Positions 2,724 through 44,284 of a stretch of DNA of 52,982 nt are shown here, one piece after another. Location of the stretch: the IMG/VR virus record IMGVR_UViG_2558860288_000010, one strand, 5' to 3'. A program made the translations under genes and the position numbers. Under the pieces are notes generated by a model, which saw only the letters and a program-made list of their open reading frames with translations, searched no databases and was not told the DNA's origin. How positions within the stretch are numbered: the stretch's first letter is position 1; every line of letters begins with the position of its first letter. The DNA comes from a virus (lineage: Duplodnaviria > Heunggongvirae > Uroviricota > Caudoviricetes).

Positions 2724-5411
2724 TTACTCGGGATCGGCGCTTCCCAGTACCTGCGTATTGAACTGATACACTCGCTTAACCCCTATTTCTGGCAGGCGTA
2801 TGCTGTTTTGTGTCCGCCCGTCCTCACCGGCTTTCAGCCAGCCCGCATCCACACACAACCTGGCCACCTTACGTGAATCAAATCCTTTACAGATTTCCTT
2901 CCAGCCGGACGGCAGCACATAAAACGTCACCACCGGTTCTGTGGTGTTGTCGCCTTTGTCCACCTTCCTGAACCCCATCATTGAAAGCGGCCGGTTTCTG
3001 TCATCGTACCAGTCTGCAAAACGGCTGAACTGGTTTCGCGTCATGAAGTCGCGTACCTGTTCAAGCGCGGTTTTGTCTTCCTGATTGGCCGCATGACCAC
3101 GATCGGCCATCCACGACGCCAGGCAGCATTCAGCCGCCCGGAATGCCTCACCTTCCGGCCAGCCGGTGATCCCGGCCTGAGTGGCCAGCTCCCCGGCCAT
3201 CGCCACCAGAGCAAAACGGGTAACCACACGGCCAACCTGATTCCCGGCATTTTCTGGTGTCAGTCTGCGGGTATATTCTTTCAGCAGGGTTTTCGCCTGG
3301 CGGGTCAGCTCAGGCAGATCCCCGGTCAGACAGTACAGCCAGTCGCGGAAAGGCGTGCCGTGATAATGCACCACCGACTGTTCCAGATGTTCTGCCAGGG
3401 TCTTCCCGCCACTGAAGCCGTGCAGCTCCTCAAACACTCCATATTTACCGGAATCGCTGGGGATCTGGATCATCCTGACCTCCACCCCGGCATAGGTTCG
3501 TTCACCGGCGTTGGCCGCATGTTCCACCAGTGACAGCTCTCCGGTGGACAGAAACAGCAGATTCCAGCGGTTGGTTTCTCTCACAGAACCATCCGTTCTG
3601 GCTCTGGCTTTCCCCTGCCCGTTCGCCAGCATATAGGCAATGTTTCCCGCCTCCCTTCCGTCAACCTCCCGGATCTCATCGAGCATCAGGGTCGCATCAT
3701 TGCGACGGCTCGCCGTTCCTTCCAGCGCATTGCCGGTAGCCCGCCACGTGTGCCAGAAGTCCGTACCACCGCAGACCGATGCGGCCACTTTCATGGTCGT
3801 GGTTTTACCGTCCGTCGATTCCCCTTTCAGGTGATAGCCGCCGCCACTCACGCCAACCAGCGTCAGCAGCGGTGCAGCAAAGGCCAGACTCACCGCAAAC
3901 GCCAGGCGGGCATTGCTGACACAATAACGCCCGATATTTTCCCGCCACTCGTCAGAAGTACCGCTGACGCGAAAATCCCGCCCCTGTACACTCGACGTCT
4001 GCAAAATAACCGACTGGGCTTCACGGCCAATCACTTCGTCCTGCAGGACATACACGCCGCCATGCCAGCCGGTTTTATTCACACAAGTGACTTTTCTGTC
4101 TGGTTTACACAGGGACAGGTATTCCATCAGGAAAGCTCTGGCCATCCCGTTGATGTTGATATAAGAAAGACCATTAACCAGTAACACGCGGCGCAGCTCT
4201 TCCCCGCTGCCGCCCAGCATTTCCATCGGCATAGCCCACTTGCGGCTGTTACCGTTTGTGTCCTCCCACTCCAGCAGACGCCCATAATTACTGCCGTCTG
4301 CATCACAGGTGATCGCAGTCACCCGCAGCGGACTGCAAATCTTGATATTGCGGATTTCCGTATCGCCATCAGACTTGTTAACCAGTTTGTCATACCACAG
4401 GTATTCCTTGGTCAGCCTGAATCCCTGCGGCAGCCGGGTCTGCCCTTTACCGTGTAGCGTCATTTCCTCGCGGAAGGCTTCACGCGCCCGATCTTTACCC
4501 ACCTCCTGCCGGTAATCATCCCAGTCCGCCTTATGGCGTACCGGGGGAAGTGTCACCCAGCCATCCACCGCTTTAGCGGCTTTCTCAGCCTGAATACGTC
4601 CGGTATTTTCCTTCCCGTCAGCCAGATCATTATCTCCGGCCAGAATGATCCGGGTCTCCGGCCAGCGCTTTCGTACTTGCTCCGTCACTTTCAGCAAATT
4701 GGTGGCCGCAACAGCCGCCACGATCCACCCTTCAGCCAGAAGGCTGACGGTCAGCGCCGTGGCATAGCCCTCCGTGATGATCACCTGTTCAGGTGTTTCA
4801 GCGGGTATATCGTTAAGGGCAATGAATGCGCCGGACAGCTGGCTGCCGGGTAGCAGGCTTTTATCACCGTCAGGGTTGATAAGCTGGCCACCGGTAATAG
4901 TCCCGGCAATATCCGTCAGTGGTAGCAGCAGCGAACCGGCAGAAAATGTCATCCCGGCCAGATTCAGAGATTGCGCCAGCAGGGGGAGTGAATACCCGTG
5001 TAAGCCCTTATTTGTCAGATAGATCGGCTCACCGTTCCGGCACTGCTGTCTGAGTCGGGTATACCGCTGCGCGCCCGTTTCTTTTCCTGCCGCCTTTTTC
5101 CTGGCGGGCAAAGCGGGTTTCTCCAGCATTTCAGGTAATGCAAGCACCTCAGATACCACATCTGCGGCTTCCTTTACCTTTCTCCCGGTCACCAGACGAA
5201 CCAGATCCAGACCATCACCATGACCGCACTGATTACAAAACCAGGTACCCCGTCCCTCTTTATCGTCGAGACGAAAGCGATCTTTGCCGCCACAGGCCGG
5301 GCAGGCTCCATGACGCCCCGCTGGCGGCACTTTGATACCTAAAGCAGACAGAATATGTGGCCAGTGCCCGACAGCAGCACCTGAAACCGCAGACACAGGT
5401 TGATTCCTCAC
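2724..5411 (-). CDS. P4 alpha-like bifunctional primase/helicase (895 aa)
   Basis: N-terminal zinc-binding motif CPACGG...FCNQCGHGDGLDLV, a central TOPRIM-like region and a C-terminal NTPase region. GTG start overlapping the stop of the upstream gene. Confidence 0.8.
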   Translation of the reverse strand: MRNQPVSAVSGAAVGHWPHILSALGIKVPPAGRHGACPACGGKDRFRLDDKEGRGTWFCNQCGHGDGLDLVRLVTGRKVKEAADVVSEVLALPEMLEKPALPARKKAAGKETGAQRYTRLRQQCRNGEPIYLTNKGLHGYSLPLLAQSLNLAGMTFSAGSLLLPLTDIAGTITGGQLINPDGDKSLLPGSQLSGAFIALNDIPAETPEQVIITEGYATALTVSLLAEGWIVAAVAATNLLKVTEQVRKRWPETRIILAGDNDLADGKENTGRIQAEKAAKAVDGWVTLPPVRHKADWDDYRQEVGKDRAREAFREEMTLHGKGQTRLPQGFRLTKEYLWYDKLVNKSDGDTEIRNIKICSPLRVTAITCDADGSNYGRLLEWEDTNGNSRKWAMPMEMLGGSGEELRRVLLVNGLSYININGMARAFLMEYLSLCKPDRKVTCVNKTGWHGGVYVLQDEVIGREAQSVILQTSSVQGRDFRVSGTSDEWRENIGRYCVSNARLAFAVSLAFAAPLLTLVGVSGGGYHLKGESTDGKTTTMKVAASVCGGTDFWHTWRATGNALEGTASRRNDATLMLDEIREVDGREAGNIAYMLANGQGKARARTDGSVRETNRWNLLFLSTGELSLVEHAANAGERTYAGVEVRMIQIPSDSGKYGVFEELHGFSGGKTLAEHLEQSVVHYHGTPFRDWLYCLTGDLPELTRQAKTLLKEYTRRLTPENAGNQVGRVVTRFALVAMAGELATQAGITGWPEGEAFRAAECCLASWMADRGHAANQEDKTALEQVRDFMTRNQFSRFADWYDDRNRPLSMMGFRKVDKGDNTTEPVVTFYVLPSGWKEICKGFDSRKVARLCVDAGWLKAGEDGRTQNSIRLPEIGVKRVYQFNTQVLGSADPE

Positions 5412-5818: not shown

Positions 5819-6047
5819 CGCGCATCTCTCCCTTAATTGTGCTGGTTTCCTTAACAACGCCATCCAGTTGTTCGGCAATACAGGCCACTAAAGCCGCAGC
5901 GCCTTCCGCTGAAACAGTTCTCGCTCCATTCACTGTGGGAACGGACAGGACCTCTGCAAGAAACTCACTGGCCAGTGCCGCCCGTAACAGACGACTCTCA
6001 CCCAGTTCGCTCAATATGCAGCCTTGCTTAAAATTCATGGATTTCAT
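5811..6047 (-). CDS. Hypothetical small protein (78 aa)
   Basis: ATG start with a strong GGGAGGTG RBS. Overlaps the neighbouring genes by a few nt at both ends. Confidence 0.45.
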   Translation of the reverse strand: MKSMNFKQGCILSELGESRLLRAALASEFLAEVLSVPTVNGARTVSAEGAAALVACIAEQLDGVVKETSTIKGEMRDE

Positions 6048-6247
6048 GCAATCACCTCCCCGGCACTTTTCACAGGGATACGGGCAGCAAAGCTCAGGAT
6101 AAATTCAGTGGCAAGTTTAAGGCGTGCAGCATGCTCGCAGTCTGCGATTACACGCACAGGACGTGGACGGGCATCACGGTCTGTACGGCGAACAGCCAGA
6201 AAGACAAAGGTAAATTCAGGGTGAGATAAAGCAGGGACTGTAGCCAT
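6044..6247 (-). CDS. Hypothetical small protein (67 aa) downstream of the structured RNA region
   Basis: ATG at 6245..6247; translation MATVPALSHPEFTFVFLAVRRTDRD.... It is the 3' part of the 196-aa track ORF 6044..6634, whose 5' part has no protein-like composition. Confidence 0.3.
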   Translation of the reverse strand: MATVPALSHPEFTFVFLAVRRTDRDARPRPVRVIADCEHAARLKLATEFILSFAARIPVKSAGEVIA

Positions 6248-6249
6248 AA

Positions 6250-6560
6250 TGGCAACCTCCGTTAGATAGCGGGTAACGCTACCACCGGAGTTCCTACGCT
6301 CATGGGTGGTAGCCCAGACGGGGGTAGGAATACCGGCTCTAACGGATACCGGCCAGCCCGAAAGCTGCCCCGCCTGGACTACCATAATTCTGATGATGTG
6401 GCGTAAAAAATAAAAACATGCAGTCAGCCACCACACCATAAATTTTAGGTGAGTCAAAGCTACGACACAAAAAAACACGCCTGGCGCGTGTTGTGTCGCC
6501 GTTAGATTACACGGGTTCCTACGCCCGGCTGCCGATTTTGCGGCAACCTTTAAACTATAT
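6250..6560 (-). ncRNA. Candidate C4/CI-type antisense RNA locus (satellite copy)
   Basis: Non-coding gap upstream of the small-gene/primase operon. Two hairpin-containing segments each carry ttcctacgc (6291..6299, 6517..6525), with a partly complementary gtaggaa segment between them (6324..6330), plus an 18-nt block tgccgattttgcggcaac (6530..6547) identical to 38449..38466. Strand inferred from the flanking genes. Confidence 0.35.
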
Positions 6561-7748: not shown

Positions 7749-8621
7749 TTAAGAAAAGATTTTATTTTTGTACTCAGTAACCCGATTGTATTTCATTACA
7801 TGCTCAACATAATCCCGGTCACTTACGACTGAACGTAATACATTATTATCTGCTCGATAGTACTCCCTGTAAGCCATAGCTCTTGCCATTCCACCGTTAT
7901 TTAATACATAACGATCAGTTGGAACGCTACAACGGCTAATAATTTCACTCACAGAATCAGACAAAGATTTGAGTGCATCTGTAATAAATTTAATATCACG
8001 GACAACGTCACCGTCATTAAACACAGAAATAAAATCAGCAGGGATCTGGCCGGATTGAGGAAATATGTTCAGTAAACGCTTCTCAACTCCCTTACCAATG
8101 TAGTTAACTTCATCGGCCAGTACGCCCGGTAAAAGCTTGATTGTGCTCAGTCGGCTATGTTGCTCATTCAGCCGGGAAACGGCCAGATGGTAACACCGTT
8201 CAGCATCCGCTCGTTCAGCATGCCCCGTTTTATTCGTTTTGGCTTCAGCAATGCTACTGACGCCGTTTTTTGAGAATGTGCTTTTCCATGCAACTTCCGC
8301 ATTTGTCACTTCACGCTGCCGAAAAGATAACTCTTCCTCTTCCTGACGACACAACTGGGCATAACGGCTCAGGAGCAGGTTGATCTCATTCGCCACAGCT
8401 TCCGTATCAGGTACTGTTAACCCCGTAAGTGAATACAACTTTTCACCTTTAGCGCGCAGCTTATTCAGTGAATATATTTCAATAATACGCACAATACAGG
8501 CCGTGTCGCTATGAGTCTCTTTAAACGGGCTTACTTTATAGCTTCCTAACACGGAAACATATTCATTCTTAATTGGAAGGGATATGTATTGACTCCCCGC
8601 CGGTTGTAGACGGTAATTCAT
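7749..8621 (-). CDS. Hypothetical 290-aa protein immediately upstream of the capsid-like gene; possible scaffold
   Basis: ATG with GAGGAG RBS. Assignment rests only on gene order (scaffold-then-capsid as in P2 O-N); no sequence similarity recognised. Confidence 0.3.
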   Translation of the reverse strand: MNYRLQPAGSQYISLPIKNEYVSVLGSYKVSPFKETHSDTACIVRIIEIYSLNKLRAKGEKLYSLTGLTVPDTEAVANEINLLLSRYAQLCRQEEEELSFRQREVTNAEVAWKSTFSKNGVSSIAEAKTNKTGHAERADAERCYHLAVSRLNEQHSRLSTIKLLPGVLADEVNYIGKGVEKRLLNIFPQSGQIPADFISVFNDGDVVRDIKFITDALKSLSDSVSEIISRCSVPTDRYVLNNGGMARAMAYREYYRADNNVLRSVVSDRDYVEHVMKYNRVTEYKNKIFS

Positions 8622-8965: not shown

Positions 8966-9763
8966 TTAATTATTTGTAAAAATTGGTTTTTTGAAAATAC
9001 TAGCAATCATTTTGCAGATTACTTCGAATGATAAGGGCGGTTCTTTCTTATCAGGCCAAAATTCGGCTGCTCGGGAAAAAACAAGCTTTGTTAGCGCTGT
9101 AGCATTGTCTTTTTTGACATTAGAGTTTTCTTTGTAAAGATAAATGGCCACACTCAAAACTTGATTTCGCTTTATTGCATGTCGCTCTTGTTGTGCAATT
9201 GATAGCGACTTATATACCTCCGAAGAAGAAACATCATTATTAATAATATTATACAGTTTTCGAACATCATCGCTTTCTATATAGCCATCATGCTCAAAAA
9301 AAAGCCCATCAGAATTTTTCCAGTCTATCTGAAAGAACTTTATCTCTTCTGAAAACACTTCCCCTGCTGGAACAAGAAGAGATGGGTATACTGGGAATTG
9401 CCCACTAAAATAAATAAAATCCTTCTGGATTCCTGGTGGGTATTTAAAATAACCTTTTATACGTAAAATAACTAAATTCTTGTCATTTTTTATCTCATGT
9501 ATTTTTATGAGACTATATTGACTAATATAACTATACCCCTCGTCATCCTTATCCAATGAATCAAGATGATTAATAAATTCATTTATACATCTAACTCGAT
9601 GCTTTGAGAAATTACCCTCCCTGCCAACAGATGCAGAGAATGAAAGTTCATTCTCTCCTGCCAGATAAAAAACATCCGCCTCTTCGCAATTTAGCATCTT
9701 AGCAACTTCTGCTACTTGATAATGCGTGCGAAATAGTTTCAAAGGAATGGTTTTATTAGCCAT
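8966..9763 (-). CDS. Hypothetical AT-rich 265-aa protein, translationally coupled to the integrase
   Basis: ATG at 9761..9763 overlaps the integrase stop by 8 nt. Markedly AT-rich compared with the integrase and primase. No recognisable motif. Confidence 0.5.
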   Translation of the reverse strand: MANKTIPLKLFRTHYQVAEVAKMLNCEEADVFYLAGENELSFSASVGREGNFSKHRVRCINEFINHLDSLDKDDEGYSYISQYSLIKIHEIKNDKNLVILRIKGYFKYPPGIQKDFIYFSGQFPVYPSLLVPAGEVFSEEIKFFQIDWKNSDGLFFEHDGYIESDDVRKLYNIINNDVSSSEVYKSLSIAQQERHAIKRNQVLSVAIYLYKENSNVKKDNATALTKLVFSRAAEFWPDKKEPPLSFEVICKMIASIFKKPIFTNN

Positions 9764-10943
9764 TACGATTCATTCCCTCAATAAAATCAGCATACCATTG
9801 CATCATTTCTCTGCGTCCTTCCAGATATTGAGCATGGTTATAAATTCCGCGAATAGAATTTTTATCTAAATGAGCAAGCTGGGTTTCAATCCATGCACTG
9901 TTAAATCCTTTCTCATGCAGAATTGTACTCATCGTATGCCTGAAACCATGCCCCGTAACACGCCCTGCATATCCAATACGTTTAAACACCTGATTAATGC
10001 TTGCTTCACTCATAAATTTGCTAGGATCGTTGCGTCCAGGGAACATCAGCGGGTAGTTCCCAGTTAGTTCTTTCAAACATTTGAGATGGGATAATGCTTG
10101 TTTTGGCAACGGGACAATATGGCTCCTACGCATTTTCATACGTTCTTTTGGGATCTCCCACACCGCATTATCAAAATCCACCTCACGCCACTCACCTGCT
10201 CTTAGTTCTCCTGTTCTTAGACCCGTCAGGATAAGTAAATGTGCCCCCAGCAATACAATTGGGCTTCCTGAATAAGCGTTAAGGGCAGTAAAGAACTCCG
10301 GCAGCTCGTTGGCTTTGAGGAATGGATAGTGGACTGCTTCATGTCCTTGCATCGCACTGGCAAGATCCGGTGCAGGATTGTAGATTGCTCTACCCGTTAC
10401 GATGGCATAGCGGAAAACTTCACCGCATCGCTGACGGACTTTCTTCGCTTTCTCCATAGCACCTCGTGCTTCTATCAACCTCAGTACTTCAAGTAGTTCA
10501 AGGGGCTGAATATCGGCTATAGGTCTGTGTCCAATATGCGGGAAAATGTCTTTCTCAAACGCCTCAATTATGTCTGAAGCATAGCCCTCAGACCATTTGG
10601 GAGATTTCATTTTGTGCCACTCTAACGCCACTTCTCTAAATGGGTTAAGTGTCTCGATCGCTGCGTTTAAAGCATGCTTCTTTGCTTTTTTCACTTCGCC
10701 AGGATCTTCACCAGCGACGAGTAGTTTCTTTGCGTCTTCGCGTTTTTGTCTGGCATCGGCGAGGGTGACTGTTGGATAGACACCAAAGGACAAGCGCTTC
10801 TCTTTACCAGCAAAACGGTACTTCATACGCCAGTAACGCGAGCCATTAGGTTCAACCTGAAGGTACAGGCCACCTCCATCAGATAGCTTATAGCTCTTCT
10901 CTTTTCCTTTAGCGGCTTCAACCTTGCGGGCATTCAGCATCAT
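9756..10943 (-). CDS. int: P4-type tyrosine integrase
   Basis: N-terminal arm-binding-like region (KSYKLSDGGGLYLQVEPNGSRYWRMKYRF) and C-terminal catalytic region with HGFRHT and a Tyr near the C-terminus. Likely ATG-ATG start at 10943; the track start at 11012 is TTG. Sits 165 bp from the tRNA-derived repeat. Confidence 0.85.
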   Translation of the reverse strand: MMLNARKVEAAKGKEKSYKLSDGGGLYLQVEPNGSRYWRMKYRFAGKEKRLSFGVYPTVTLADARQKREDAKKLLVAGEDPGEVKKAKKHALNAAIETLNPFREVALEWHKMKSPKWSEGYASDIIEAFEKDIFPHIGHRPIADIQPLELLEVLRLIEARGAMEKAKKVRQRCGEVFRYAIVTGRAIYNPAPDLASAMQGHEAVHYPFLKANELPEFFTALNAYSGSPIVLLGAHLLILTGLRTGELRAGEWREVDFDNAVWEIPKERMKMRRSHIVPLPKQALSHLKCLKELTGNYPLMFPGRNDPSKFMSEASINQVFKRIGYAGRVTGHGFRHTMSTILHEKGFNSAWIETQLAHLDKNSIRGIYNHAQYLEGRREMMQWYADFIEGMNRNG

Positions 10944-11107
10944 TGGGGGCACATTTCCTAGACCGAACAGAACATGCCCCCGATTGTGCCCCCAATTGTA
11001 TGTTGATTTCAAGAGATAGGGGTTGACGTCAAATGACGAAGAATCGCGTAATAACTATGTTTTTAAAGGGTTTTGTTGATTTGAGATGACTTGGAAATAC
11101 TAAGGGA

Positions 11108-31767: not shown

Positions 31768-32229
31768 CTATCTGCACTGTTCCTTAATATACTGCTGAGT
31801 CCCTTCCAGTTGTTTCTGCATTATTATCAGTCTATCTCTGAGGGTGAAATAATTCCGTTCAGCGGTGTCTGCCAGTCGGGGGGAGGCTGCATTATCCACG
31901 CCGGAGGCGGTGGTGGATTCACGCACGGACGGACAGACTGCTTTGATGCGCAACCGACGACGACCAGCGGCAACATCATCACGCAGAGCATCATTTTCAG
32001 ATTTCGCATCATCTAACTCCTTCGTGTATTTTGCATCGAGCGCAGCAACATCACGCTGGCGAAGCTGCATATCAGTAATTGTCGAGTTCGCCAGCTTCAG
32101 TTCACTGGCCTTGTTATCGCGCTGCTCTTTGTAGGCGATTGCGTTATCACGGTAATGATTAACAGCCCATGACAGGCAGACGATGATGCAGATAACCAGA
32201 GCGGAGATAATCGCGGTTACTCTGTTCAT
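31768..32229 (-). CDS. Rz i-spanin
   Basis: N-terminal TM helix and coiled-coil body. ATG at 32229 overlaps the endolysin stop (ATGA). Confidence 0.8.
31827..32012 (-). CDS. Rz1 o-spanin lipoprotein, embedded in the +1 frame of Rz
   Basis: Lipobox LVVVGC and proline-rich body ([15 protein letters not shown]); lies entirely within Rz on the same strand. Confidence 0.8.
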
Positions 32230-32723
32230 TGCTGACCCCACAAACAGATTTCACGCTCAATCTCACGACGAGTCATCAGGCCTTTCCATTGCTTACCGCC
32301 AGCGTATGTCCAGCGACGCAGCTGATCACATGCGCCTTTGATATCGCCCTGGTTTATTTTGCGAAGAAGCGTCGATGTTCTAAAATTGCCAGCACCCACG
32401 TTGTAAACGAATGAGTAAAGAGCGCCGCGCGTTGTTTCCGGTATATCGACTTTGATATACGGGTTAATTTGTCTGGCGACAGTGGCAAGGTCTTTATTCA
32501 AGAGTGCTTTGCATTCTGCTTTGGTATACGTTTTACCGAGCATGATGTCTTTTCCGGTGTGTCCGTGACATACAGTCCATACACCAACAATATCTTTGTA
32601 TGGTATGTAGCTGACACCTTCCAGACCATCGTTACCACTTGGGCCAGTGATTAACACTGATGCTATAGCAATTGCTCCGCCACCAATAGCAGCAGCAACG
32701 GCTTTTCGTAATGATGGAGGCAT
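32226..32723 (-). CDS. SAR endolysin (lysozyme)
   Basis: N-terminal signal-anchor-release segment [16 protein letters not shown] followed by a lysozyme-like domain; ATG start overlaps the holin stop. Confidence 0.8.
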
Positions 32724-32938
32724 TATTCACCTCTCGCAGCCTTGCGCTTATCTTCTTTAATCTTGAAATAAAGGTTTGTCAGGTACGTCAGCAGGCCAAA
32801 TACCAGGCTACCCAGCACACCTATTGCTGCCCACTGTGAGGGAGTGACTTTATCGAGCAGCTGTAAAAACCAGTAACCGGCACTACCTGCTGAGGTGCCA
32901 TAGGCGACTCCAGTTGTTAACTTATCCATGAATTTCAT
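32723..32938 (-). CDS. Pinholin (S21-type) with dual-start motif
   Basis: [26 protein letters not shown]...KRKAARGE is near-identical to the phage-21 / DLP12 pinholin as recalled. ATG at 32938 with GAGGTGGGG RBS. Confidence 0.8.
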
Positions 32939-33526
32939 AACCCCACCTCGCAGACAAAGCGGGTGTAAATTGAGGGAATACAACGTATCGCAAAAAAGCA
33001 GAAACGTAACTGACTCCGAGTCAGTGAATAACTCAGGTATTGAGTTATCAGCTAATATCGAGACTCAAAAAATGGAAAAACCAGCTCGACGGCGGGTTTA
33101 AGCTGTGTGACGAAGTAACCACTCTTAACAGCATAACCAATTTTTTACGTACGTAAACCACTGAATGATATTTATGAGAATGCTACCGAGTGTTCAAAAC
33201 ATCACCACAAATACATAAGAAAACTTCAACAAATAAACAATAAATAATTTCCAGTGTTATTTTTAGCTGGTTTAAATTAAACAGACGAATTATAGAACCA
33301 CCATAAATAACAGCCATTAATATAAATTAGCTAATAGGTTTATTTTTGTTCAAATAAGAGCCATAAATAGGTTTCGATAGAAAAAGTTCAGATAAAAATA
33401 GAGATCTACTTCACAAATTAAATGAGAAACTAAAACTTACATCTTGAAATAATCACATTGATTAGATGAATATTTATCGCGCAGTGACATCATTTTTTAA
33501 TAATAGTTCAAAAAAAAGGGCTCACG

Positions 33527-34624
33527 ATGAAAAAATTAACAGTGGCAATTTCTGCTGTAGCTGCATCAGTACTGATGGCGATGTCTGCTCAGGCAGCTGA
33601 AATTTATAATAAAGACAGTAACAAGCTGGATCTGTACGGGAAAGTTAATGCCAAGCACTACTTTTCCTCTAACGATGCAGATGATGGTGATACTACTTAT
33701 GTTCGTCTGGGCTTCAAAGGCGAAACCCAAATCAACGATCAGCTGACTGGTTTCGGTCAGTGGGAATATGAATTCAAAGGCAACCGCGCTGAATCTCAAG
33801 GTTCCTCCAAAGACAAAACCCGTCTTGCATTTGCAGGCCTGAAATTCGGTGACTACGGCTCAATCGATTACGGCCGTAACTACGGTGTAGCATACGACAT
33901 CGGTGCGTGGACTGACGTTCTGCCAGAATTCGGTGGCGATACCTGGACCCAAACAGATGTGTTCATGACTGGTCGCACCACTGGTGTTGCAACCTATCGT
34001 AACAACGACTTCTTTGGTCTGGTTGATGGTCTGAACTTTGCTGCTCAGTACCAAGGCAAAAACGATCGTAGCGATTTCGATAACTACACCGAAGGTAACG
34101 GTGATGGCTTCGGTTTCTCTGCTACCTATGAATACGAAGGATTCGGTATCGGTGCAACTTATGCGAAATCTGATCGTACCGACACTCAAGTTAATGCAGG
34201 GAAAGTTCTTCCTGAAGTATTTGCTTCCGGTAAAAATGCAGAAGTTTGGGCCGCAGGTCTGAAATATGACGCTAACAACATTTACCTGGCCACTACCTAT
34301 TCTGAAACCCAGAATATGACTGTATTTGCTGATCACTTCGTTGCTAATAAAGCTCAAAACTTCGAAGCTGTTGCACAATATCAGTTCGATTTCGGTCTGC
34401 GTCCGTCCGTTGCTTACCTGCAATCTAAAGGTAAGGATCTTGGAGTATGGGGCGATCAGGACTTAGTCAAATATGTTGATGTAGGTGCAACCTATTACTT
34501 CAACAAAAATATGTCTACTTTCGTTGATTACAAAATCAACCTGCTTGACAAAAATGACTTCACTAAAGCACTCGGTGTAAGCACTGATGACATCGTTGCT
34601 GTAGGTCTGGTTTACCAGTTCTAA
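33527..34624 (+). CDS. nmpC: OmpC/OmpF-family outer-membrane porin (nmpC/ompD-like), intact
   Basis: 365 aa with signal peptide [23 protein letters not shown] and a porin C-terminus ending ...GLVYQF. Lies between Q and the holin, as nmpC does in DLP12. Confidence 0.85.
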
Positions 34625-34640
34625 TCTGATTACGAAAAAG

Positions 34641-34674
34641 ATATGTTGCGGGAGGCGTTGCCTCCCCAACATAT
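34641..34674. terminator. Long hairpin downstream of the porin gene (candidate terminator)
   Basis: atatgttgcgggaggc-gtt-gcctccccaacatat near-perfect inverted repeat, with a T-run on the minus-strand side. Confidence 0.4.
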
Positions 34675-34762
34675 AAGTGGCTCCCTCAAGCCACTTCCTT
34701 TAGGAGCACAACCTTGCTTCTAACTATATAAACCTTCTGTTATATATTACCCTTTATTTTTG

Positions 34763-34790
34763 GGGGCGTTGCAACGCCCCATTTTTAATA
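34763..34790 (+). terminator. Rho-independent terminator-like palindrome
   Basis: Perfect 18-nt palindrome GGGGCGTTGCAACGCCCC followed by ATTTTTAATA on the plus strand. Confidence 0.5.
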
Positions 34791-34813
34791 ACTTTCAGTA
34801 AACAATTGGCATA

Positions 34814-35197
34814 TTAATTAGAGTTATTAACAACGATATCCATCTCTAACCGGATATCTAATGCCATTAACATCCCTTCAATTATGCCCTCAGCCTTCTG
34901 TAACCTTTTCCCGATATAACCATCAGAGCAGCAATGCTTACCTGCCAGTGACATGAATGTCATACCGACTACATAATAATCTACTAATAAATCGTGCAAA
35001 TCGCTGTTGTTCTTTTTCAGACGGGCCATGCACCCGCAAATGATCATCGCGTCATCGTCACAACATTGCGGGCGAGATTTTACTTTTGAAGGAATTAATC
35101 CCTTAAAACCGGCGGCAATGGACGACCAGGTCACATCTTCATGATTATTAGCCGCCCACGCTCCCCAACGCTCAAGAACCATCTGAATATCACGCAT
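34814..35197 (-). CDS. quuD: Late-gene antiterminator Q (QuuD-like)
   Basis: [24 protein letters not shown]... matches the DLP12 QuuD N-terminus as recalled. ATG at 35197; the track start is TTG. Confidence 0.8.
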
Positions 35198-35419
35198 CAA
35201 CTTACTCCACAAAAATCAGACCAGAACGCCAATTACAAGCAAAAATCAGCAAAACAGTATTAGTTGATTGTTATCTCTGACTTCATACTCCTGCTCCTGT
35301 CAGTGTTTTGGCGTAATTCTTCAGTATCCGGTAATCGGTCAAAACAGAACCGGGGAAACGATATAAGCGCAGGCGCATCCAGCGGTGGCGAAGACGTTCT
35401 GCCATATAAGACTCAAACA

Positions 35420-35782
35420 TCATTCATTCCCCATTTCGGTGATGGTCAGTTCCAGCCTCCCACCTTTGGTAACAGGCATCTTCACAACGCGGTAATCAAC
35501 GACCTGAGCATCATCCAGCCAGAAACCTGCTTTAGTGAGTGCGTCAAAAGCGGCTTTTTGCAGATTATCCAGGTCACGGCGACGGCGATCCGGCATGTGG
35601 CACTCAATGCGGATTTTCACAGGCATAGCCAGGCCGATATCCAGCATTGCGTTTTTAATGATTCGGGCGACGTTATCGCGGTATGCCTGCCCCTCTGCGC
35701 TGACGTGCGTGCGCCCGCGATTATGGCGGTAATAGCGATTATTGCTCGGAGGCCAGGGTAATGTGATGCTGTAGGTATTCAC
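35420..35782 (-). CDS. rusA: RusA Holliday-junction resolvase
   Basis: [38 protein letters not shown]... matches E. coli RusA as recalled; GTG start. Confidence 0.9.
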
Positions 35783-36069
35783 GCCTTAATAACCCCCTCT
35801 TTCAGCCAGATAACCTGTGTTCTCGCCATACCTTCCAGCGCGCATTCTTTTGCATATGCAGCATCGACAAAATGTGTGCGGCGGTCGATTTCGTCGTGGC
35901 AGGCAGAACATGCAATGGTGGCAATCAGGTCTGGCGGTTTGGTACCGGTGCCGCACAATCCAGTCAGCCGGATATGTGCCAGTACAGACGTTTCAGGGTT
36001 GCCATTGCATACGCCAGGGATTCTTACCTGGCATTCGCGACCACGCGCTGCTTTTCTCAAATCAGCCAT
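35779..36069 (-). CDS. ybcO: YbcO-like putative nuclease (Cys-rich)
   Basis: [23 protein letters not shown]...[13 protein letters not shown]; ATG at 36069 with AAGGAGGAAT RBS. Confidence 0.7.
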
Positions 36070-36232
36070 GATTCCTCCTTGCTGCCAGTCGCAACCATTT
36101 TTTATCAACCAGGCTGGCGGTATATCCGAGCAGTGTTGGTATTTCGGATGGTTTTAGCTCAGGCTTACGCTTACGACGATTTGGTACTTTGTAGATGTGT
36201 CCGTTCATGACACGAATAAGCGGTGTAGCCAT
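36062..36232 (-). CDS. ninE: NinE (56 aa), not in the ORF track
   Basis: Hand translation gives [59 protein letters not shown] at 36232 overlaps the ybcN stop; the stop overlaps the ybcO start. Confidence 0.65.
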   Translation of the reverse strand: MATPLIRVMNGHIYKVPNRRKRKPELKPSEIPTLLGYTASLVDKKWLRLAARRNHG

Positions 36233-36687
36233 TACGCCTCCTGTTTGTCGCGGAGCTGCTGGAACTCGCAGCTCTGCGGAATAGTCAGGTGGCAGCCAAT
36301 ATTCATCGCCCAGGCTTCAACCTTACACAGGAAGATATACATCTCTCCGGTATCAAGATCGGAGGTATGGCGTAACGACTGGATAGTGGTGATCTCACCG
36401 GTTACGACATCAACCAGGTCTTTGGTTTCATAACCGAGATATGTGTGTTTGAGAGCATCTTTTACCCAAGCTGGAGTGGCGAACGTTTTACCCCTGCTGA
36501 TGAGGTATTCACTGATTTCGCTGTACCACATGTGGCTGAGTGCATTCTGGGAAAGACTGCGTTTCTCACGCCACGGTTTAAGCACCATGCGAAAGCATTT
36601 GCCTTCCTCCAGATAAGGCTGGATCTGCTGACCGATAGCAGTGAAGTTACCACGATGCAATTTGATGCCGTCTTGTGGGAGGTTCAC
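36232..36687 (-). CDS. ybcN: YbcN / NinB-family protein
   Basis: 151 aa with a REKRSLSQN motif, at the head of the nin gene block; GTG start. Confidence 0.6.
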
Positions 36688-36720
36688 GCTTCACCTCCGC
36701 AGAGGTCAAACGCTGGATGC

Positions 36721-36869
36721 AAAAAATCGCAGGTGCATCTCTGCATCTGTGAAGGGAGAAGAGAGTTTGGATTGTATGTGCGCATAAACGTCCCCGTTTA
36801 GCGCAGAAGTCACCGGAGTTGTTCAAGCTCCAATGGCATGATTATGGCTGGTTGATTATTGGAAATCAA
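36721..36869. repeat. 149-bp direct repeat, copy A (about 90% identical to 38664..38812)
   Basis: Base-by-base comparison of the two segments; contains hairpin-forming segments (gcgcataaacg / gtttagcgc). Confidence 0.85.
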
Positions 36870-36881
36870 ATGTGCTGAAAA

Positions 36882-37391
36882 TTAGTCTGCCAAGTCTTCC
36901 TCAGTCGCAACTGGGTAATTCCAAATATCAAAAAAAGCTATAGCCTCCTGCCATTTGCTCCATAAGTTATCAAGTACTTGTGTAGGTTCCGTACTTTTAA
37001 AAACAGAATCAGCCGCATCACCGTTATGAACTTCCTCGTACAGTTCCATTATTAGCAGATTAACAAAGTACTGTTTCAACATTAATGCCTGATTACCTTC
37101 TTTCTGCTGGCTATCCTGCTTGATGATCTCCATCGCCCGTACTAGGCACCTGATGATATCCGCTGCATCATTAACGCTCCATTCAGATCCGCGCTTATCT
37201 TTAGCTGATGAATTGGCTCTCTCAGCGCAAGCCTTTAAAGACTCATAAAGGTAAACTCTATTTTGTAGCTGCAGCGCTTTTTTTGACGTGTACCAACTTG
37301 CAAGCGCCGACCCCGCTGCGGCTAATGTGCCAAACGCAGAAATGCCTGCTGCTATTGCACTTAAGTCGGCACTGTCAAAGTTCCACATCAT
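36882..37391 (-). CDS. Hypothetical protein (169 aa) with an N-terminal hydrophobic segment
   Basis: ATG start; AIAAGISAFGTLAAAGSALASW looks like a signal or TM segment. Confidence 0.4.
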   Translation of the reverse strand: MMWNFDSADLSAIAAGISAFGTLAAAGSALASWYTSKKALQLQNRVYLYESLKACAERANSSAKDKRGSEWSVNDAADIIRCLVRAMEIIKQDSQQKEGNQALMLKQYFVNLLIMELYEEVHNGDAADSVFKSTEPTQVLDNLWSKWQEAIAFFDIWNYPVATEEDLAD

Positions 37392-37626
37392 CGTTACACC
37401 TTATATAAACACCCCTCAGTAATATCCAATAAGGTATGTGAACAATCAATATAATTTATATCCGTATCGGCACATAGCGATTTTAATGCTACTGATAATG
37501 GTATCTTTTAGATTATATCGTCCAGTTCCAGTACCCGTATTTTATGAAATGGACTCGCACATTACCAAAAAAAATGCCAGCACTTCCGTCATCGCAGAAT
37601 GCTGGCAGTATTTCTAACTAGTGACT

Positions 37627-38235
37627 TTATTGCAACAGATTCTGACGGAAATATGGTAACACACGACTCCACTTATCATCCTGCCACGGTTGGAATTTTA
37701 CATGCGCCGTTTCTCTGGCAAGGATTTCTCGCGCCCTGTTGAGTATCCGAGGATATTCTTGTTCGATTGAAGTGAATCTACCTGCTTCGCGATGCTCTGC
37801 GACCTGAAGAAGGGGCGTAACGTTCTGGCAGGCGGTTAACATCGTATCACTTGCTCGCCATAACCAGGCGAGTGTGCAAAGTTCGTTATCAGTGAATTGT
37901 TTTGTGATTGGGGATTGTTGAACTTCTCGATCGAGAATATCCAGAACCCAGCGGCGGAATTCTTTGGCCACAGGAGTACGAGCAAACATGGCGATCAAAT
38001 GGGCTCCGCGAAGGCTAAATACTCGAGACTCCTGCATTCCACGAGGGGTGGTCACTTTGACCACCCTTGTCATCATATCTGTGAATTCATCTGAGTGCCG
38101 AGAGTAAATGCGCTGAACTGCTTTATCGTCCGCATATTCCAGTGCTAAACCAACTTCAGTGGCAGTAAGCCAAATTCTGTTATTGTGGCAAATCGGGGTA
38201 AACGTCGTTTTGTGGAATGCTAATTGAGTAGTCAT
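37627..38235 (-). CDS. Phage antirepressor-like protein (putative)
   Basis: 202 aa; N-terminus resembles antirepressor/Bro-N-type proteins as recalled, and the gene sits directly downstream of the C4-like structured region (P1 c4-ant arrangement). Confidence 0.45.
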   Translation of the reverse strand: MTTQLAFHKTTFTPICHNNRIWLTATEVGLALEYADDKAVQRIYSRHSDEFTDMMTRVVKVTTPRGMQESRVFSLRGAHLIAMFARTPVAKEFRRWVLDILDREVQQSPITKQFTDNELCTLAWLWRASDTMLTACQNVTPLLQVAEHREAGRFTSIEQEYPRILNRAREILARETAHVKFQPWQDDKWSRVLPYFRQNLLQ

Positions 38236-38239
38236 AGTA

Positions 38240-38480
38240 TCACCTCATCAGGTTAACCATCACCACCAACGACGCCAATCGACTGGTGGTGAACTGTGTA
38301 AGGTTGGCGTAACCGGCTACTCAAACCCGGCGCTTCCGAAGAAGCCCTCACACAGCCCACCATAATTTGGGCATAGCCGTGCTTAGCGCACAAAAAAACC
38401 GCTTAACGCGGTATGCGTTGAGTAGTATCCCGGGACGCCAATCCCGTGTGCCGATTTTGCGGCAACGCACAGAATATAGC
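38240..38480 (-). ncRNA. Candidate C4/CI-type antisense RNA locus (prophage copy)
   Basis: Non-coding leader upstream of the antirepressor-like gene. Two hairpin-containing segments each carry acgccaat (38272..38279, 38435..38442), with a partly complementary ttggcgt segment between them (38304..38310), plus the shared 18-nt block at 38449..38466. Confidence 0.35.
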
Positions 38481-38663
38481 GCCGGATAAATCATGTCGTC
38501 AACCCCAGTAAATGGACACCATGATGATCACAGCCATAGCTGCTACAACAGTTACAACTACCTCAGGCCAAAACATAACGATTTCCATATCACCTTTAGC
38601 CGCCAGACGAATAGAGACTCCCAATTCTGGCTGTCGAAGTAAAACACCGAATGTAAAAAATCG

Positions 38664-38812
38664 TAGGTGCATTTCTGCATCTGTGAATGGAGATGAGAGT
38701 TTGGATTGTGTGTGCGCATAAACGTCCCCGTTTAGCGCAGAAGTCACCGGAGTTTTTTAGGCTCCGATGACATGATTATGGCGAGTTGATTATGATGAAT
38801 CAATAGGTTCTT
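38664..38812. repeat. 149-bp direct repeat, copy B
   Basis: About 90% identical to 36721..36869. Confidence 0.85.
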
Positions 38813-38895
38813 ATGTCAAATGAACACTAGATCCAAAGGAGGGTAACAATTATCATAGCCAATGAGATTAATCTCATTTTTAATAAGGAAATTTC

Positions 38896-40017
38896 ATGAA
38901 ATATTTCTCAACTGGTTTTTATGTTTCAAACTCCACATCTCTAGCTGAGATCTTTAATGAATGTTTTTCTTGGGTAAACGACTCACCACATACAACTTTT
39001 ATTCCAGCACAATTAGTATGTGATTATAAAAGCGAGGAGTACTTCATAGAGTCTAAAAATGAAAGAATTGATATAATAACTTATAAAAACAAAGATACTA
39101 GTTTAGGCTGTTTTAGGTATTCGAAAATATCTGAGCCACACAAATGGGTAACAGATATTTCAATTAATAAAAATCTCAAAACTGATACCATGTGGATTCA
39201 GGTGGAATCTAGCGTTGTAAGCCAAGATGCAGCTTATCTAGCCCCGCAACCTAAGAAACCATTAGTTGTTATGAGATTGATTGATAAATTTTCTGGTGGT
39301 CTTGATGATATTTTCAAGGTGTCAGTCGAACCTCATTCCTTAGATGATACTGATGAACATTTAAATATAGCAGCTAAAGTTATAAATGGTGAAACTGACA
39401 ACAGACTACCAATAATATACGTTAGCTCCAAGTATTTTTTTAATGAACATGCTCACAATATCATCCCAGAACGCCTTGCAAGAAAGGTATGCGGATTAGC
39501 ACATGTATTAATTGAGCCTAGCAATAGACTATTTTCTATTAAGCTAAAAAATGAGACAAATGCTAAAAATGCCTATGCTGGTGCTGTTGGTATCTATTGG
39601 CCACGGGGTCAAAATATCAGTTTTTATCGCCGTGGTGAGAAAACCGCAAAAGAATTTGAAGATGAGTTATTTGATGATGTTGTAAGAGCTACGACTACAA
39701 TGGCTCCTGTCTCAGATAGTGGATGGAGTGAGATACAAACCAGAAAAACGAAAGACTCTATTAACTCACTCAAAGAAAGAGGAGAATACACACGCGAACT
39801 GATGGCGCTTTACGAAGCCGATAATGTTGCGAAAGATGACCAAATAGAAGATCTTAAGCATAAGATCTCCTCTTTAGAGCACAGAGTACGCACTCTTCAA
39901 TCACAAGCTTCAGCCCAAGGAAGCATTGTGCTTAATGCTGGTGAAGAGACTGATTTTTTTGATGGAGAAATCAAAAATATAATTATTGACGCACTAAAAA
40001 CTGCCATAAAAAAATAA
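38896..40017 (+). CDS. Hypothetical AT-rich 373-aa protein in reverse orientation to the surrounding early genes; possibly truncated
   Basis: ATG with AAGGAA RBS; C-terminal coiled-coil-like region. The stop follows a run of seven A's (40008..40014). Confidence 0.55.
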   Translation: MKYFSTGFYVSNSTSLAEIFNECFSWVNDSPHTTFIPAQLVCDYKSEEYFIESKNERIDIITYKNKDTSLGCFRYSKISEPHKWVTDISINKNLKTDTMWIQVESSVVSQDAAYLAPQPKKPLVVMRLIDKFSGGLDDIFKVSVEPHSLDDTDEHLNIAAKVINGETDNRLPIIYVSSKYFFNEHAHNIIPERLARKVCGLAHVLIEPSNRLFSIKLKNETNAKNAYAGAVGIYWPRGQNISFYRRGEKTAKEFEDELFDDVVRATTTMAPVSDSGWSEIQTRKTKDSINSLKERGEYTRELMALYEADNVAKDDQIEDLKHKISSLEHRVRTLQSQASAQGSIVLNAGEETDFFDGEIKNIIIDALKTAIKK

Positions 40018-40315
40018 AAATGAATTTGGTAGAAGCTACCATATCTTATCATCCCTAATTGCCAATAATGAATACAATAAAGAAACCGAGAGTCGCCGCC
40101 AATTACTTAAAAGGACTTTAACAGGTTACAGAAGCATGGATAGCGCAACACAAAGAAATTTAAAGGACTTAGGTTTCAGTGCGTCAAGCGATGGAAAACA
40201 CTGGAAGTTAACATATAATGAAGACCCTCGATATTCCTATATTTTACCTAAAACAGGAAGTGACCACAGAGGTTCTTTAAATGCTATCTCGGATATAGCA
40301 AACATTATTTTCTAA
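40016..40315 (+). pseudogene. Out-of-frame downstream continuation (about 100 codons) of the 373-aa gene
   Basis: Open frame from 40016 to the TAA at 40313..40315, with no ATG until 40135 and no RBS; a 1-nt change in the A7 run would fuse it to the upstream gene. Confidence 0.3.
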
Positions 40316-40323
40316 TAAATTTC

Positions 40324-40349
40324 AATAGCACTCACAAATGAGTGCTATT
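40324..40349. terminator. Hairpin between convergent genes
   Basis: aatagcactc-acaaat-gagtgctatt, a perfect 10-bp stem. Confidence 0.4.
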
Positions 40350-40366
40350 GTTGCCACTGAATTACT

Positions 40367-40621
40367 CTATTTAAATTCAACTTTTATCCCTTTGTTTAGC
40401 AGGGCATCAGAAACTGCCTTTTTTGTAACATTTATCCCTGCAAGCAATGCTTTATGCATTGGTCCCTTAAAAATTTCTACTTCTTCTTCAGTGAGTTTAG
40501 GCAATGTAATATAAATAACATCTTTCATCTGCTTGTTTTTATAGCATGAGCTTCTTGTGTGCTTACAATCGATATTTTCTTTATTTCCCAAAACATCATC
40601 CCCTTTATAATTCAGTTCCAC
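40367..40621 (-). CDS. Hypothetical small AT-rich protein
   Basis: ORF with alternative start and no clear RBS; lies between ren and the inserted reverse-oriented gene. Confidence 0.25.
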   Translation of the reverse strand: MELNYKGDDVLGNKENIDCKHTRSSCYKNKQMKDVIYITLPKLTEEEVEIFKGPMHKALLAGINVTKKAVSDALLNKGIKVEFK

Positions 40622-40685
40622 ACATCAATTATTTAGTTATCACGAATGTCGTAAAACTAAAATTAGTAACAATAATTGCTCATAC

Positions 40686-40973
40686 CTACTCTCTTCCATA
40701 TAAAGCCAACACCCGCTTCATCGCGGCACTTTGACGACACTCCTTAAAAATCAGATTCGTGCTCACCTTTCCTTCCCGTTCTTCTCTGGTAGCGAACCGG
40801 TAATACACCGTTCGCCAGACCTTACCATCAACGACCAGGATTCCTGACCGCGCCATTTTAGCCGCAGCCTGATTTATGCTGGTTACGGTTGCGCCTGTTA
40901 CCGCGGCAACGTCCTGCGCACAGAAGTTCTTATGAGTCCCCAGGTAATGAATAATTGCCTCTTTGCCCGTCAT
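40686..40973 (-). CDS. ren: Ren protein
   Basis: MTGKEAIIHYLGTHKNFCAQDVAAVTGATVTSINQAAAKMAR... is near-identical to lambda Ren as recalled. Confidence 0.85.
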   Translation of the reverse strand: MTGKEAIIHYLGTHKNFCAQDVAAVTGATVTSINQAAAKMARSGILVVDGKVWRTVYYRFATREEREGKVSTNLIFKECRQSAAMKRVLALYGRE

Positions 40974-43514: not shown

Positions 43515-43579
43515 AATAGCAATACGTATTAACCATAACAATAGCAAAACGTGTTTTGACCATCAATACGCAAGCGTAT
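43515..43579. promoter_or_regulatory. Divergent cI/cro operator-promoter region
   Basis: Three dyad-symmetric sites: AATACGTATT (43521..43530), AAAACGTGTTTT (43546..43557) and ATACGCAAGCGTAT (43566..43579), with ATAGCAA(T/A)A half-site-like motifs. Confidence 0.5.
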
Positions 43580-43591
43580 AAATTAAAACTT

Positions 43592-44284
43592 ATGAAAAAA
43601 GAAACTCTTGCTGATCGCTTAAACCTAGCGATGGAACAATCTGGAATGTCTCAAGGCGCTCTTGCAAAGGCGTCTGGCGTAGCTCAACCCACAATCTGGA
43701 GACTGACAAGCGGCAACGCGCGCGGCTCAACAAAAATTGTTGAAATAGCTAATGCATTGGGTGTTCGAACAGAGTGGCTCTCATCAGGCATAGGCCCGAT
43801 GAGAAATGACGGTCAACAATTAGGGAAGCCTACTGCCAACCATCCCAAATACTTCAAGATTGACGTTCTTGACATAGAAGTAAGCGCTGGTCCTGGTGTC
43901 ATTAACCGCGAATTCGTAGAAGTTCTACGTTCAGTTGAGTACTCCCAGGACGATGCTCGCCATATGTTCGATGGCAGGAAGGCGGAAAATATCCGCATCA
44001 TTAACGTGCGCGGTGACAGTATGTCAGGGACGATCGAACCTGGTGACCTGCTGTTCGTTGATATCACAGTTAAATCTTTCGATGGCGATGGTATCTATGC
44101 GTTCCTGTACGACGACACAGCCCATGTTAAGCGCCTACAAATGATGAAGGACAAGCTATTGGTTATCTCTGATAACAAGAGCTACTCACCGTGGGACCCG
44201 ATCGAGAAAGACGAGATGAACCGGGTGTTTATCTTCGGGAAAGTCATTGGAAGCATGCCGCAGACGTATAGGAAGCATGGGTAG
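43592..44284 (+). CDS. cI: CI-type prophage repressor (HTH plus S24 LexA-like peptidase domain)
   Basis: N-terminal HTH (MSQGALAKASGVAQPTIWRL) and C-terminal autocleavage region with GDSM. ATG at 43592, with no obvious RBS, lies 13 nt after the last operator palindrome. The track start at 43556 is TTG inside the operators. Confidence 0.8.
   Translation: MKKETLADRLNLAMEQSGMSQGALAKASGVAQPTIWRLTSGNARGSTKIVEIANALGVRTEWLSSGIGPMRNDGQQLGKPTANHPKYFKIDVLDIEVSAGPGVINREFVEVLRSVEYSQDDARHMFDGRKAENIRIINVRGDSMSGTIEPGDLLFVDITVKSFDGDGIYAFLYDDTAHVKRLQMMKDKLLVISDNKSYSPWDPIEKDEMNRVFIFGKVIGSMPQTYRKHG

Follow-up and report, generated by a model that had tools for sequence, protein, structure and literature searches.

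The C4 RNA of phage P1 is a stable species of ~77 nt that is processed from a longer transcript, with RNase P acting at its 5' end, and heteroimmunity that arises from altered recognition sequences in C4 has its precedent in P1 and P7. The immI region of these phages has the order a1, b1, c4, a2, b2, icd, ant (Citron and Schuster, 1990; NC_005856), and the site names used here follow the annotation of the P1 GenBank record. In P4, the order is seqA, CI RNA (8507..8420 of the P4 genome), seqC and kil/eta. There, the CI RNA causes premature transcription termination of the replication and Kil genes, and the RNA gene is crossed by an ORF, eta, that shares its frame with the first gene under control. 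A third system, isrK - orf45/STnc1160 - anrP of Gifsy-1, was described by Hershko-Shalev et al. (2016; PMC4825925). The Gifsy-1 operon is transcribed from the isrK promoter without being translated, and the short IsrK RNA activates translation in trans, its G28 and G31 forming pairs with bases C162 and C159 in the orf45 region; translation of anrP is coupled to that of orf45, and a stable processed RNA arising downstream of IsrK was likened by the authors to P4 CI (PMC4825925). Elsewhere, seqA has been equated with IsrK and CI RNA with C4, and copies in lambdoid prophages were noted, with speculation about an anti-satellite role (PMC3632133). Further cases are the c4 and isrK elements upstream of BRO-N genes in the APSE phages of Hamiltonella (PMC7313666) and the CA RNA/antirepressor system of N15 (Ravin et al., 1999, cited in PMC3632133). 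Motifs c4 and c4-a1b1 go back to PMC2864571, and the presence of the C4/IsrK design in satellites and lambdoid prophages has already been discussed (PMC3632133, PMC4825925, PMC7313666).

The DNA analyzed here is a stretch of 52,982 nucleotides (IMG/VR record IMGVR_UViG_2558860288_000010; hereafter, the window). From its sequence, an initial annotation had proposed that a prophage carries a second C4-type structured leader whose recognition sequences differ from those of a satellite copy. An Rfam scan of the whole window bore this out, with C4 and isrK above their thresholds at both loci. In the prophage, C4 (RF01695) matched at 38367..38282 over its full length (1-87) with 74.8 bits against a threshold of 45 (E ~1e-13), and isrK (RF01394) matched at 38464..38392 with 58.7 bits against a threshold of 50 (E ~4e-10). 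The satellite copies, at 6389..6302 for C4 (81 bits) and 6547..6470 for isrK (71.8 bits), likewise exceeded the curated thresholds. The prophage locus is an uncharacterised, ordinary member of the already-known P1 c4/P4 CI/Gifsy-1 IsrK design that Rfam catalogues, and very probably it is an immI-type antisense-RNA switch that keeps an antirepressor gene silent by base-pairing.

The prophage element is read on the minus strand, and RNA sequences are given as minus-strand sequences. The unit extends beyond 38240-38480, with its -35 box at 38497-38502, the start codon of the antirepressor gene at 38233-38235 and the downstream target b2 at 38224-38231. A promoter scan predicted a sigma-70-type promoter at 38473..38502 (10/12 matches), directly upstream of the leader, in which a -35 TTGACG (38502..38497) and a -10 TATATT (38478..38473) are separated by an 18-nt spacer. 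This TTGAC-18-TATATT layout aligns with the isrK promoter of Gifsy-1, and transcription is predicted to start near G38466. The IsrK-like leader, or short RNA (38392..38466), is the equivalent of P4 seqA and the P1 a1-b1 region and comprises two hairpins, numbered 1 and 2, followed by a linker and an intrinsic terminator. Hairpin 1 (GUUGCCGCAAAAUCGGCA, 38449..38466) is an 18-nt block that is identical in the satellite locus (6530-6547). The loop of hairpin 2 carries target a1 (UUGGCGU, 38435..38441), the complement of C4 a', and target b1 (CUACUCAA, 38418..38425), the complement of the C4 b' loop, lies in the linker that separates hairpin 2 from the terminator. The terminator (38391..38412; ACCGC-GUUAA-GCGGU followed by U7) was identified by a terminator scan and in the Rfam isrK alignment. 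Since its stem is short, read-through is plausible, and partial read-through has been shown for the Gifsy-1 homologue (PMC4825925). The isrK leader fold of the prophage copy had a z-score of only -1.65. C4 begins 24 nt past the U-run of the terminator.

The C4-type RNA (38282..38367) is 86 nt long, and its minimum-free-energy fold is the Rfam family structure (z = -5.9 vs. shuffles). In this fold, a closing stem of 17 bp encloses two hairpins, the first of the UUCG type and the second with the b' recognition sequence (UUGAGUAG, 38317..38324) as its loop; an 8-nt single-stranded joint 3' of hairpin 2 contains the a' recognition segment (ACGCCAA, 38304..38310), and there is a 3' ACCACCA tail. 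Among 37 distinct homologues, double-sided changes occurred in 15 of the 27 C4 pairs and 99.9% of alignment cells were paired, as against 33-50% in slid controls, in an alignment that was fitted to the C4 model and hence favours the structure. Downstream, target a2 (UUGGCGU, 38272..38278) begins at the fourth base past the C4 3' end, which is the relative position of the annotated P1 a2, and target b2 (CUACUCAA, 38224..38231) occupies codons 2-4 (ACU ACU CAA) of the antirepressor gene.

Exact string searches of the whole window located the strings quoted in the initial annotation where it had placed them on the plus strand: acgccaat at 38272 and 38435 (with further copies at 35226 and 52633), ttggcgt at 38304, the 18-nt tgccgattttgcggcaac at 38449, and ccaccataattt at 38357. 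Both of the latter had been described as blocks shared with the satellite locus; this is correct for the 18-mer, which has its second copy at 6530, while only 8 nt of the 12-mer (ccataatt; 6382 and 38360) are common to the two loci. The central segment, which had been called partly complementary to the repeated motif, is in fact fully complementary over 7 of the 8 repeated bases. That motif corresponds to the a set of recognition sequences (ACGCCAA and two copies of UUGGCGU); a second, b set, consisting of UUGAGUAG and its two targets, had been missed and appears on the plus strand as ttgagtag at 38224 and 38418 with its complement ctactcaa at 38317. All four complements together were recovered in 0 of 20000 shuffles of the two flanks (single-site frequencies, 0.001-0.026), so the arrangement is beyond chance.

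The integrity of these sites bears on whether the locus might be an inactive relic, or a conventional protein-regulated promoter that retains RNA motifs as inherited baggage. Such a reading could draw on the c4-a1b1 model (RF03163), to which the prophage leader (38479..38427) scored 39.6 bits in a permissive local Rfam scan, below the threshold of 46.7 that Gifsy-1 passes with 48.1 bits. The region is nevertheless still within the isrK model match, with a1 in the hairpin-2 loop as in P1. Moreover, both recognition segments and all four of their targets are preserved, with exact complementarity between them, the C4 structure is intact, and the locus is identical in the record of phage PhiR26_1 and conserved in 308 genomes. 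Comparison within the window also revealed no operator shared by the leader promoter and the immunity region, but only scattered 10-11-mers, none of them in the cI-cro region. We consider a relic or a protein-controlled promoter scarcely credible.

If the switch works by base-pairing, recognition segments and targets should change together, and the initial annotation had named such covariation as a check. To follow it across relatives, 80 IMG/VR loci were picked by exact match to the 16-mer TGCCGCAAAATCGGCA, which lies inside the 18-nt leader block, and a covariance model built on the two C4 copies of the window returned 56 matches, comprising those 2 and 54 C4 copies in the 80 loci. For each C4 copy, reverse complements of the loop and the joint were sought in the flanks, over 170-230 nt on the upstream side and 70-160 nt on the downstream side. 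In 46/46 units examined from viral contigs, both sides had cognate complements of 7-10 nt at conserved offsets, and these units represent 26 distinct specificity combinations, formed from 20 loop and 8 joint variants. Among non-cognate pairs, most reached 4-5 nt; motif and complement thus covary, and the refuting outcome named in the initial annotation did not occur. These counts of contiguous complements, limited to the loops and flanks, replaced RNAduplex energies of whole C4 cores against target regions; the latter were uninformative, being strong also for non-cognate pairs, because the conserved GCCGG stems are opened in the calculation. Loops and joints are reassorted among units; ACGCCAA, for instance, is combined with four different loops, also on P4-like scaffolds (contigs L010 and L046). 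The prophage locus is thus a clean illustration of independent reassortment of the two C4 recognition sets.

This covariation also weighs on a purely cis-acting leader, in which a1 and b1 would pair with a' and b' of the same read-through molecule in the manner of a riboswitch, the short IsrK RNA would open the structure in trans, and processed C4 would have no regulatory role. In Gifsy-1, the compensatory pairs G28A/C162U and G31A/C159U, together with native gels, were read as a cis switch, and the emphasis of that study was on alternative structures in cis and on IsrK as an activator, rather than on a processed C4 RNA as a repressor; over-expression of STnc1160 did not relieve toxicity (PMC4825925). 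The sequences involved in the Gifsy-1 cis pairing are also present in the prophage locus, where the Shine-Dalgarno sequence (GAGGUGA, 38240..38246) is predicted to lie inside a small local hairpin even without C4. Nonetheless, if only a1 and b1 were needed, the downstream a2 and b2 sites that covary with a' and b' in every relative would be unexplained. When the whole leader of 262 nt is folded in silico, the C4 domain pairs within itself and not with the leader. The conserved closing stem and 3' ACCACCA tail fit a tRNA-like processing substrate, and in Salmonella STnc1160 occurs as a processed RNA that is stable (PMC4825925, PMC7067206). A cis-only mode is therefore very unlikely in our view, and we favour an antisense role for a processed C4 RNA.

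The gene that this RNA would control (37627..38235, minus strand; start AUG at 38235..38233) encodes a protein of 202 aa with the Pfam domains Bro-N and P22_AR_C and with matches to PHROG anti-repressor Ant families, in agreement with its initial description as antirepressor-like. RefSeq names it 'P22AR C-terminal domain-containing protein', and in the identical phage PhiR26_1 it is called 'Rha protein'. From the family names, the protein is assumed to act against the resident CI-type repressor (43556-44284). Its Shine-Dalgarno sequence and AUG fall between or within the a2 and b2 sites. In most relatives b2 overlaps the Shine-Dalgarno sequence, whereas in the prophage it lies in codons 2-4 instead. 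An upstream ORF of 36 codons (38253..38363, minus strand) starts with the conserved AUGG in the 5' strand of C4 (38363) and ends with a UAA at 38255..38253, 17 nt from the antirepressor AUG. It is the counterpart of Gifsy-1 orf45, and its frame is open across C4 in 35/35 distinct homologues; among the same 35, stops interrupt the other two frames in 26 and 25 cases. Translation of this ORF and its coupling to the next gene have been shown only for Gifsy-1 orf45 (PMC4825925). The proposed echo of the P1 c4-ant arrangement holds for the a1/b1-c4-a2/b2 layout but not for icd: between C4 and the antirepressor gene of the prophage there is no icd-like gene, and only the 36-codon ORF overlaps C4.

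By analogy with P1 and Gifsy-1, from which repression of the downstream gene by C4 is drawn (PMC8198154, PMC4825925), the switch could operate as follows. The constitutive-looking promoter (38502..38473, minus strand) would yield a transcript starting near 38466, and most transcripts would end at the leader terminator, giving a short IsrK-like RNA that bears a1 and b1. From read-through transcripts, the 86-nt tRNA-acceptor-like domain would be excised as a stable C4-type RNA exposing the b' loop and the a' joint. These segments would pair with a2, ~40 nt ahead of the start codon, and with b2 on the read-through mRNA, thereby clamping the ribosome-binding region of the Bro-N/P22_AR_C gene, such that no protein would be made in the lysogen. 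This clamp would be of uncertain geometry, since b2 lies in the coding region, and not on the Shine-Dalgarno sequence as in P1, P4-like elements and Gifsy-1, and the a2-b2 spacing is 40 nt, vs. ~22 nt in P1. Blocked translation may add Rho-dependent termination, as in P1. Derepression could take either of two routes modelled on Gifsy-1 IsrK: the identical a1 and b1 copies of the leader would titrate the C4 RNA, or ribosomes translating the 36-codon ORF would pass through C4 and a2. The binding of Hfq and the trans-activation of the read-through mRNA by IsrK are known only for Gifsy-1 (PMC4825925). Titration of C4 in the prophage, like its processing and the activity of the antirepressor, is likewise suggested by these homologues.

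A C4-like RNA acting at a1/b1 and a2/b2 might instead mainly force premature transcription termination, as in P4, so that control of the antirepressor would be transcriptional. The P4 CI RNA does act by termination via seqA and seqC (as summarised in PMC4825925, PMC3632133), P4 itself has the same leader-C4 layout as the prophage locus, and in the latter an intrinsic terminator stands between b1 and C4. On the other hand, a2 and b2 bracket the Shine-Dalgarno sequence and start codon, with b2 in codons 2-4, an arrangement that suits a block of translation and would be needless for termination, and the Gifsy-1 operon is transcribed yet untranslated (PMC4825925, Table 1A). Although we regard a mainly transcriptional mode as unlikely, the two modes are not mutually exclusive. 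Indeed, Biere, Citron and Schuster reportedly found in 1992 that the translation block in P1 leads to Rho-dependent polarity.

Translational silencing by C4 is the reading that we prefer. The locus was compared with the described systems. Gifsy-1 shares with it the lambdoid setting, the promoter layout, the IsrK leader with its terminator, an antirepressor gene directly downstream, a C4-type RNA and, overlapping it, a short ORF with the same AUGG start, and the identical a' ACGCCAA with a1/a2 UUGGCGU. The two differ in the b' loop (UCGGUGAU in Gifsy-1 vs. UUGAGUAG in the prophage), in b2, which is on the Shine-Dalgarno sequence in Gifsy-1, and in the end of the upstream ORF, whose stop overlaps the anrP start (AUGA) in Gifsy-1 rather than leaving a gap of 17 nt. 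They also differ in the position of the module, which is downstream of Q in Gifsy-1 and upstream of Q, in the nin region, in the prophage. The prophage antirepressor was examined as an orthologue of Gifsy-1 AnrP and rejected as such, since BLASTP gave an E value of 0.003 confined to the N-terminus and the proteins belong to different antirepressor families. With P1, the locus shares the order of elements, the C4 fold, the placement of a2 four bases after C4 and that of b' in the hairpin-2 loop. In P1, however, C4 and ant are separated by icd, a cell-division inhibitor gene to whose translation ant expression is coupled; b2 covers the Shine-Dalgarno sequence of icd, and one of the P1 promoters has a C1 operator, none being evident at the prophage leader promoter. 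P1 is, in addition, a plasmid prophage, and by name its antirepressor and that of the prophage belong to unrelated families. The RNA of P4 is of the same family, but the P4 unit governs replication and Kil genes, whereas the prophage unit precedes an antirepressor gene. As far as can be drawn from their descriptions, APSE and N15 resemble the locus in having a C4-type RNA and a region matching a'/b' upstream of a Bro-N/antirepressor gene, in different hosts and with different specificities.

The satellite locus of the window is a P4-type immunity unit (6302..6549, minus strand), identified with Rfam and composed of an IsrK/seqA-like leader (6470-6549) and a C4/CI RNA (6302-6389). Its architecture over 6044-6634 is that of P4 seqA - CI RNA - seqC - kil/eta, and its neighbours are an alpha-like primase gene (2724..5411) and an integrase gene (9756..11012). 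An ORF of 196 codons (6044-6634) runs through the C4 gene, and nested in it is the 67-aa Icd/Kil-like ORF controlled by the unit (6044..6247, minus strand); islands related to the satellite annotate a 'host cell division inhibitor Icd-like protein'. The leader-to-C4 spacer is ~60 nt shorter in the prophage than in this P4-type unit. The satellite RNA has a' UUCCUAC and b' CCGUUAGA, with two targets GUAGGAA and two targets UCUAACGG(A). Thus, the two C4 RNAs have neither recognition site in common, and the longest complement between either RNA and the targets of the other spans 6 nt, with no match to a cognate recognition core. Regulatory cross-talk between the satellite and its co-resident prophage had been suggested; because no site is shared, the sequences instead predict that the two switches are insulated from one another. 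At the level of sequence, a satellite and a prophage that reside in the same chromosome can thus have C4 copies that are wholly orthogonal.

Across the family, a broader proposition is possible, which we advance tentatively and hold to be rather doubtful: that the C4 gene is an obligatory dual-use sequence, that RNA recognition dictates the antirepressor N-terminus and the recombination joint, and that half-site cross-immunity occurs elsewhere. Considering that the AUGG frame of C4 is open in all homologues compared, translation through C4 and a2, as by P4 eta, Gifsy-1 orf45 and the prophage ORF, could be a general physiological route of derepression. Viral contig L025 has the same leader through codon 4, followed by an AnrP-type gene, which places a mosaic joint just past b2. 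Since b2 lies in codons 2-4 and an unrelated AnrP-type gene has the same codons in L025, recognition at the RNA level may dictate the N-terminus of the antirepressor and mark the recombination joint. As a weaker alternative, the a' segment ACGCCAA, which is shared by Gifsy-1, the PhiR26_1-type group and some P4-like satellites (L010 and L046), could bring about partial cross-immunity in other genomes; such half-site sharing is inapplicable between the two loci of the window.

The host prophage is lambdoid and, over positions 31585-38739, matches Escherichia phage PhiR26_1 with ~97% identity, and within this span 37600-38560 is 100% identical in the deposited phage. The C4 module belongs to the nin region, where it is flanked by a defence-cargo slot and a ninB/ybcN homologue. 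Outside the module, a third copy of AUUGGCGU (35226-35233), located 29-36 nt upstream of the start of the Q antiterminator gene, was considered as an additional C4 target because AnrP induces AntQ in Gifsy-1. This candidate was rejected as a probable coincidence: the ylcG-quuD junction that contains it occurs in 3472 genomes, vs. 308 for the C4 locus, and exact string search found no b-type site beside it near Q. A 296-nt core of the C4 locus was present in 308 of 5426 complete E. coli genomes, with at least 99% identity in 119, and no RNA feature is listed under these matches. Diverged relatives of the locus were found in 224 phage records, many of them Stx-converting. A widespread group of E. 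coli lambdoid prophages therefore carries an unannotated RNA switch on its antirepressor gene, which has little import beyond annotation, although the switch is relevant to predicting prophage induction and heteroimmunity. Both loci of the window can be classified by an Rfam search alone.

Comparison of the prophage control module with related viral loci in IMG/VR located a mosaic joint next to a target site. At locus L025 (positions 12515-12885), the promoter, leader, C4 RNA gene, downstream target a2 and antirepressor codons 1-4, which include the second downstream target (b2), were near-identical to window 38150-38520. Immediately 3' of codon 4, L025 continues into an unrelated AnrP-type antirepressor gene, and the joint between the two sequences is thus placed directly after the b2 site. 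Two further C4 copies, L010:6327-6414 and L046:5964-6051, combine the "lambdoid" form of the recognition segment a' (ACGCCAA) with a different loop; their flanks are P4-like, with an Icd/Kil-like small ORF downstream. Reassortment of the two recognition sets between satellite and phage lineages follows from this.

The module also lies within a repeat-bounded cassette. A direct repeat of 168 nt, with copies 87% identical, occurs at window 36702-36869 and 38636-38803, enclosing a small upstream ORF, the IsrK/C4/antirepressor unit and a 169-aa ORF. The small upstream ORF can be read either as a phrog_4612-like product of 57 aa (38499-38672) or, as annotated in the related Escherichia phage PhiR26_1, as one of 53 aa (38558-38719). 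Both repeat copies contain a promoter-like TTGATT-17-CATAAT and a small hairpin. Beyond the repeat the copies differ, one entering the upstream small ORF and the other a ninB/ybcN homologue. The repeat pair resembles a scaffold on which recombination could add or remove cassettes. Beside the module is a cargo slot (38740-40695) that is unlike PhiR26_1, which has PD-lambda-1 at that place. The slot contains a 373-aa ORF (38896-40017, plus strand) that has no Pfam family and weakly matches HEC-07 in PADLOC (E = 5e-10); small ORFs come after it.

Within the C4 genes, the frame initiated at the conserved AUGG of the C4 5' strand contained no internal stop in any of 35 distinct, though not phylogenetically independent, sequences, namely the two window genes (38282-38367 and 6302-6389) and 33 distinct homologues from IMG/VR loci (L004-L080) and the Salmonella prophage Gifsy-1. 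Stops interrupted the remaining two frames in 26 and 25 of these sequences, respectively, and the AUGG frame stays open although many loop variants hold an out-of-frame TAA, TAG or TGA. This fits with P4 eta, an ORF that reads through the CI RNA gene, and with orf45 of Gifsy-1.

An alternative pairing is possible between CACCACCAG, which forms the 3' strand of the C4 closing stem, and UUGGUGGUG, directly downstream of a2 (window 38261-38291, minus strand). In the hairpin so formed a2 occupies the apical region, and part of it falls in a small inner stem in the minimum-free-energy fold. Gifsy-1 has a similar GGUGGUGAU after a2, and the satellite locus has GGUGGUAGC at this position. As modeled, the hairpin could represent an alternative fold specific to the precursor.

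Upstream of the late antiterminator gene Q/quuD (start at 35197) is a third copy of the a-type target sequence AUUGGCGU, 29-36 nt from that start (window 35226-35233, minus strand). As an extra C4 target it is probably a coincidence, since no b-type site lies nearby and the C4 module is absent from most of the 3472 E. coli genomes that have the ylcG-quuD junction carrying this copy.

A partial, 46-nt copy of tRNA-Thr(CGU) (11108-11153) lies just past the satellite integrase gene (9756-11012), and the intact tRNA gene (51539-51614) lies just past that of the prophage (50364-51524). The satellite and the lambdoid prophage therefore share one tRNA attachment site, where they lie in tandem. Among the genes of the P4-like satellite is one for Kiwa defence, with a KwaB domain (1-996); related islands annotate kwaA/kwaB. 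The satellite's P2-family major capsid protein gene is directly upstream of the immunity promoter and co-directional with it, whereas sid-delta-psu is divergent in P4; the stretches concerned are window 1-1650 and 6722-7726. Finally, Rfam IS009 gave a full-length match (208.6 bits) at window 11638-11836, minus strand, within a tail-fibre-assembly ORF (11595-12179; Caudo_TAP domain), and this "RNA family" match may simply be conserved coding sequence.
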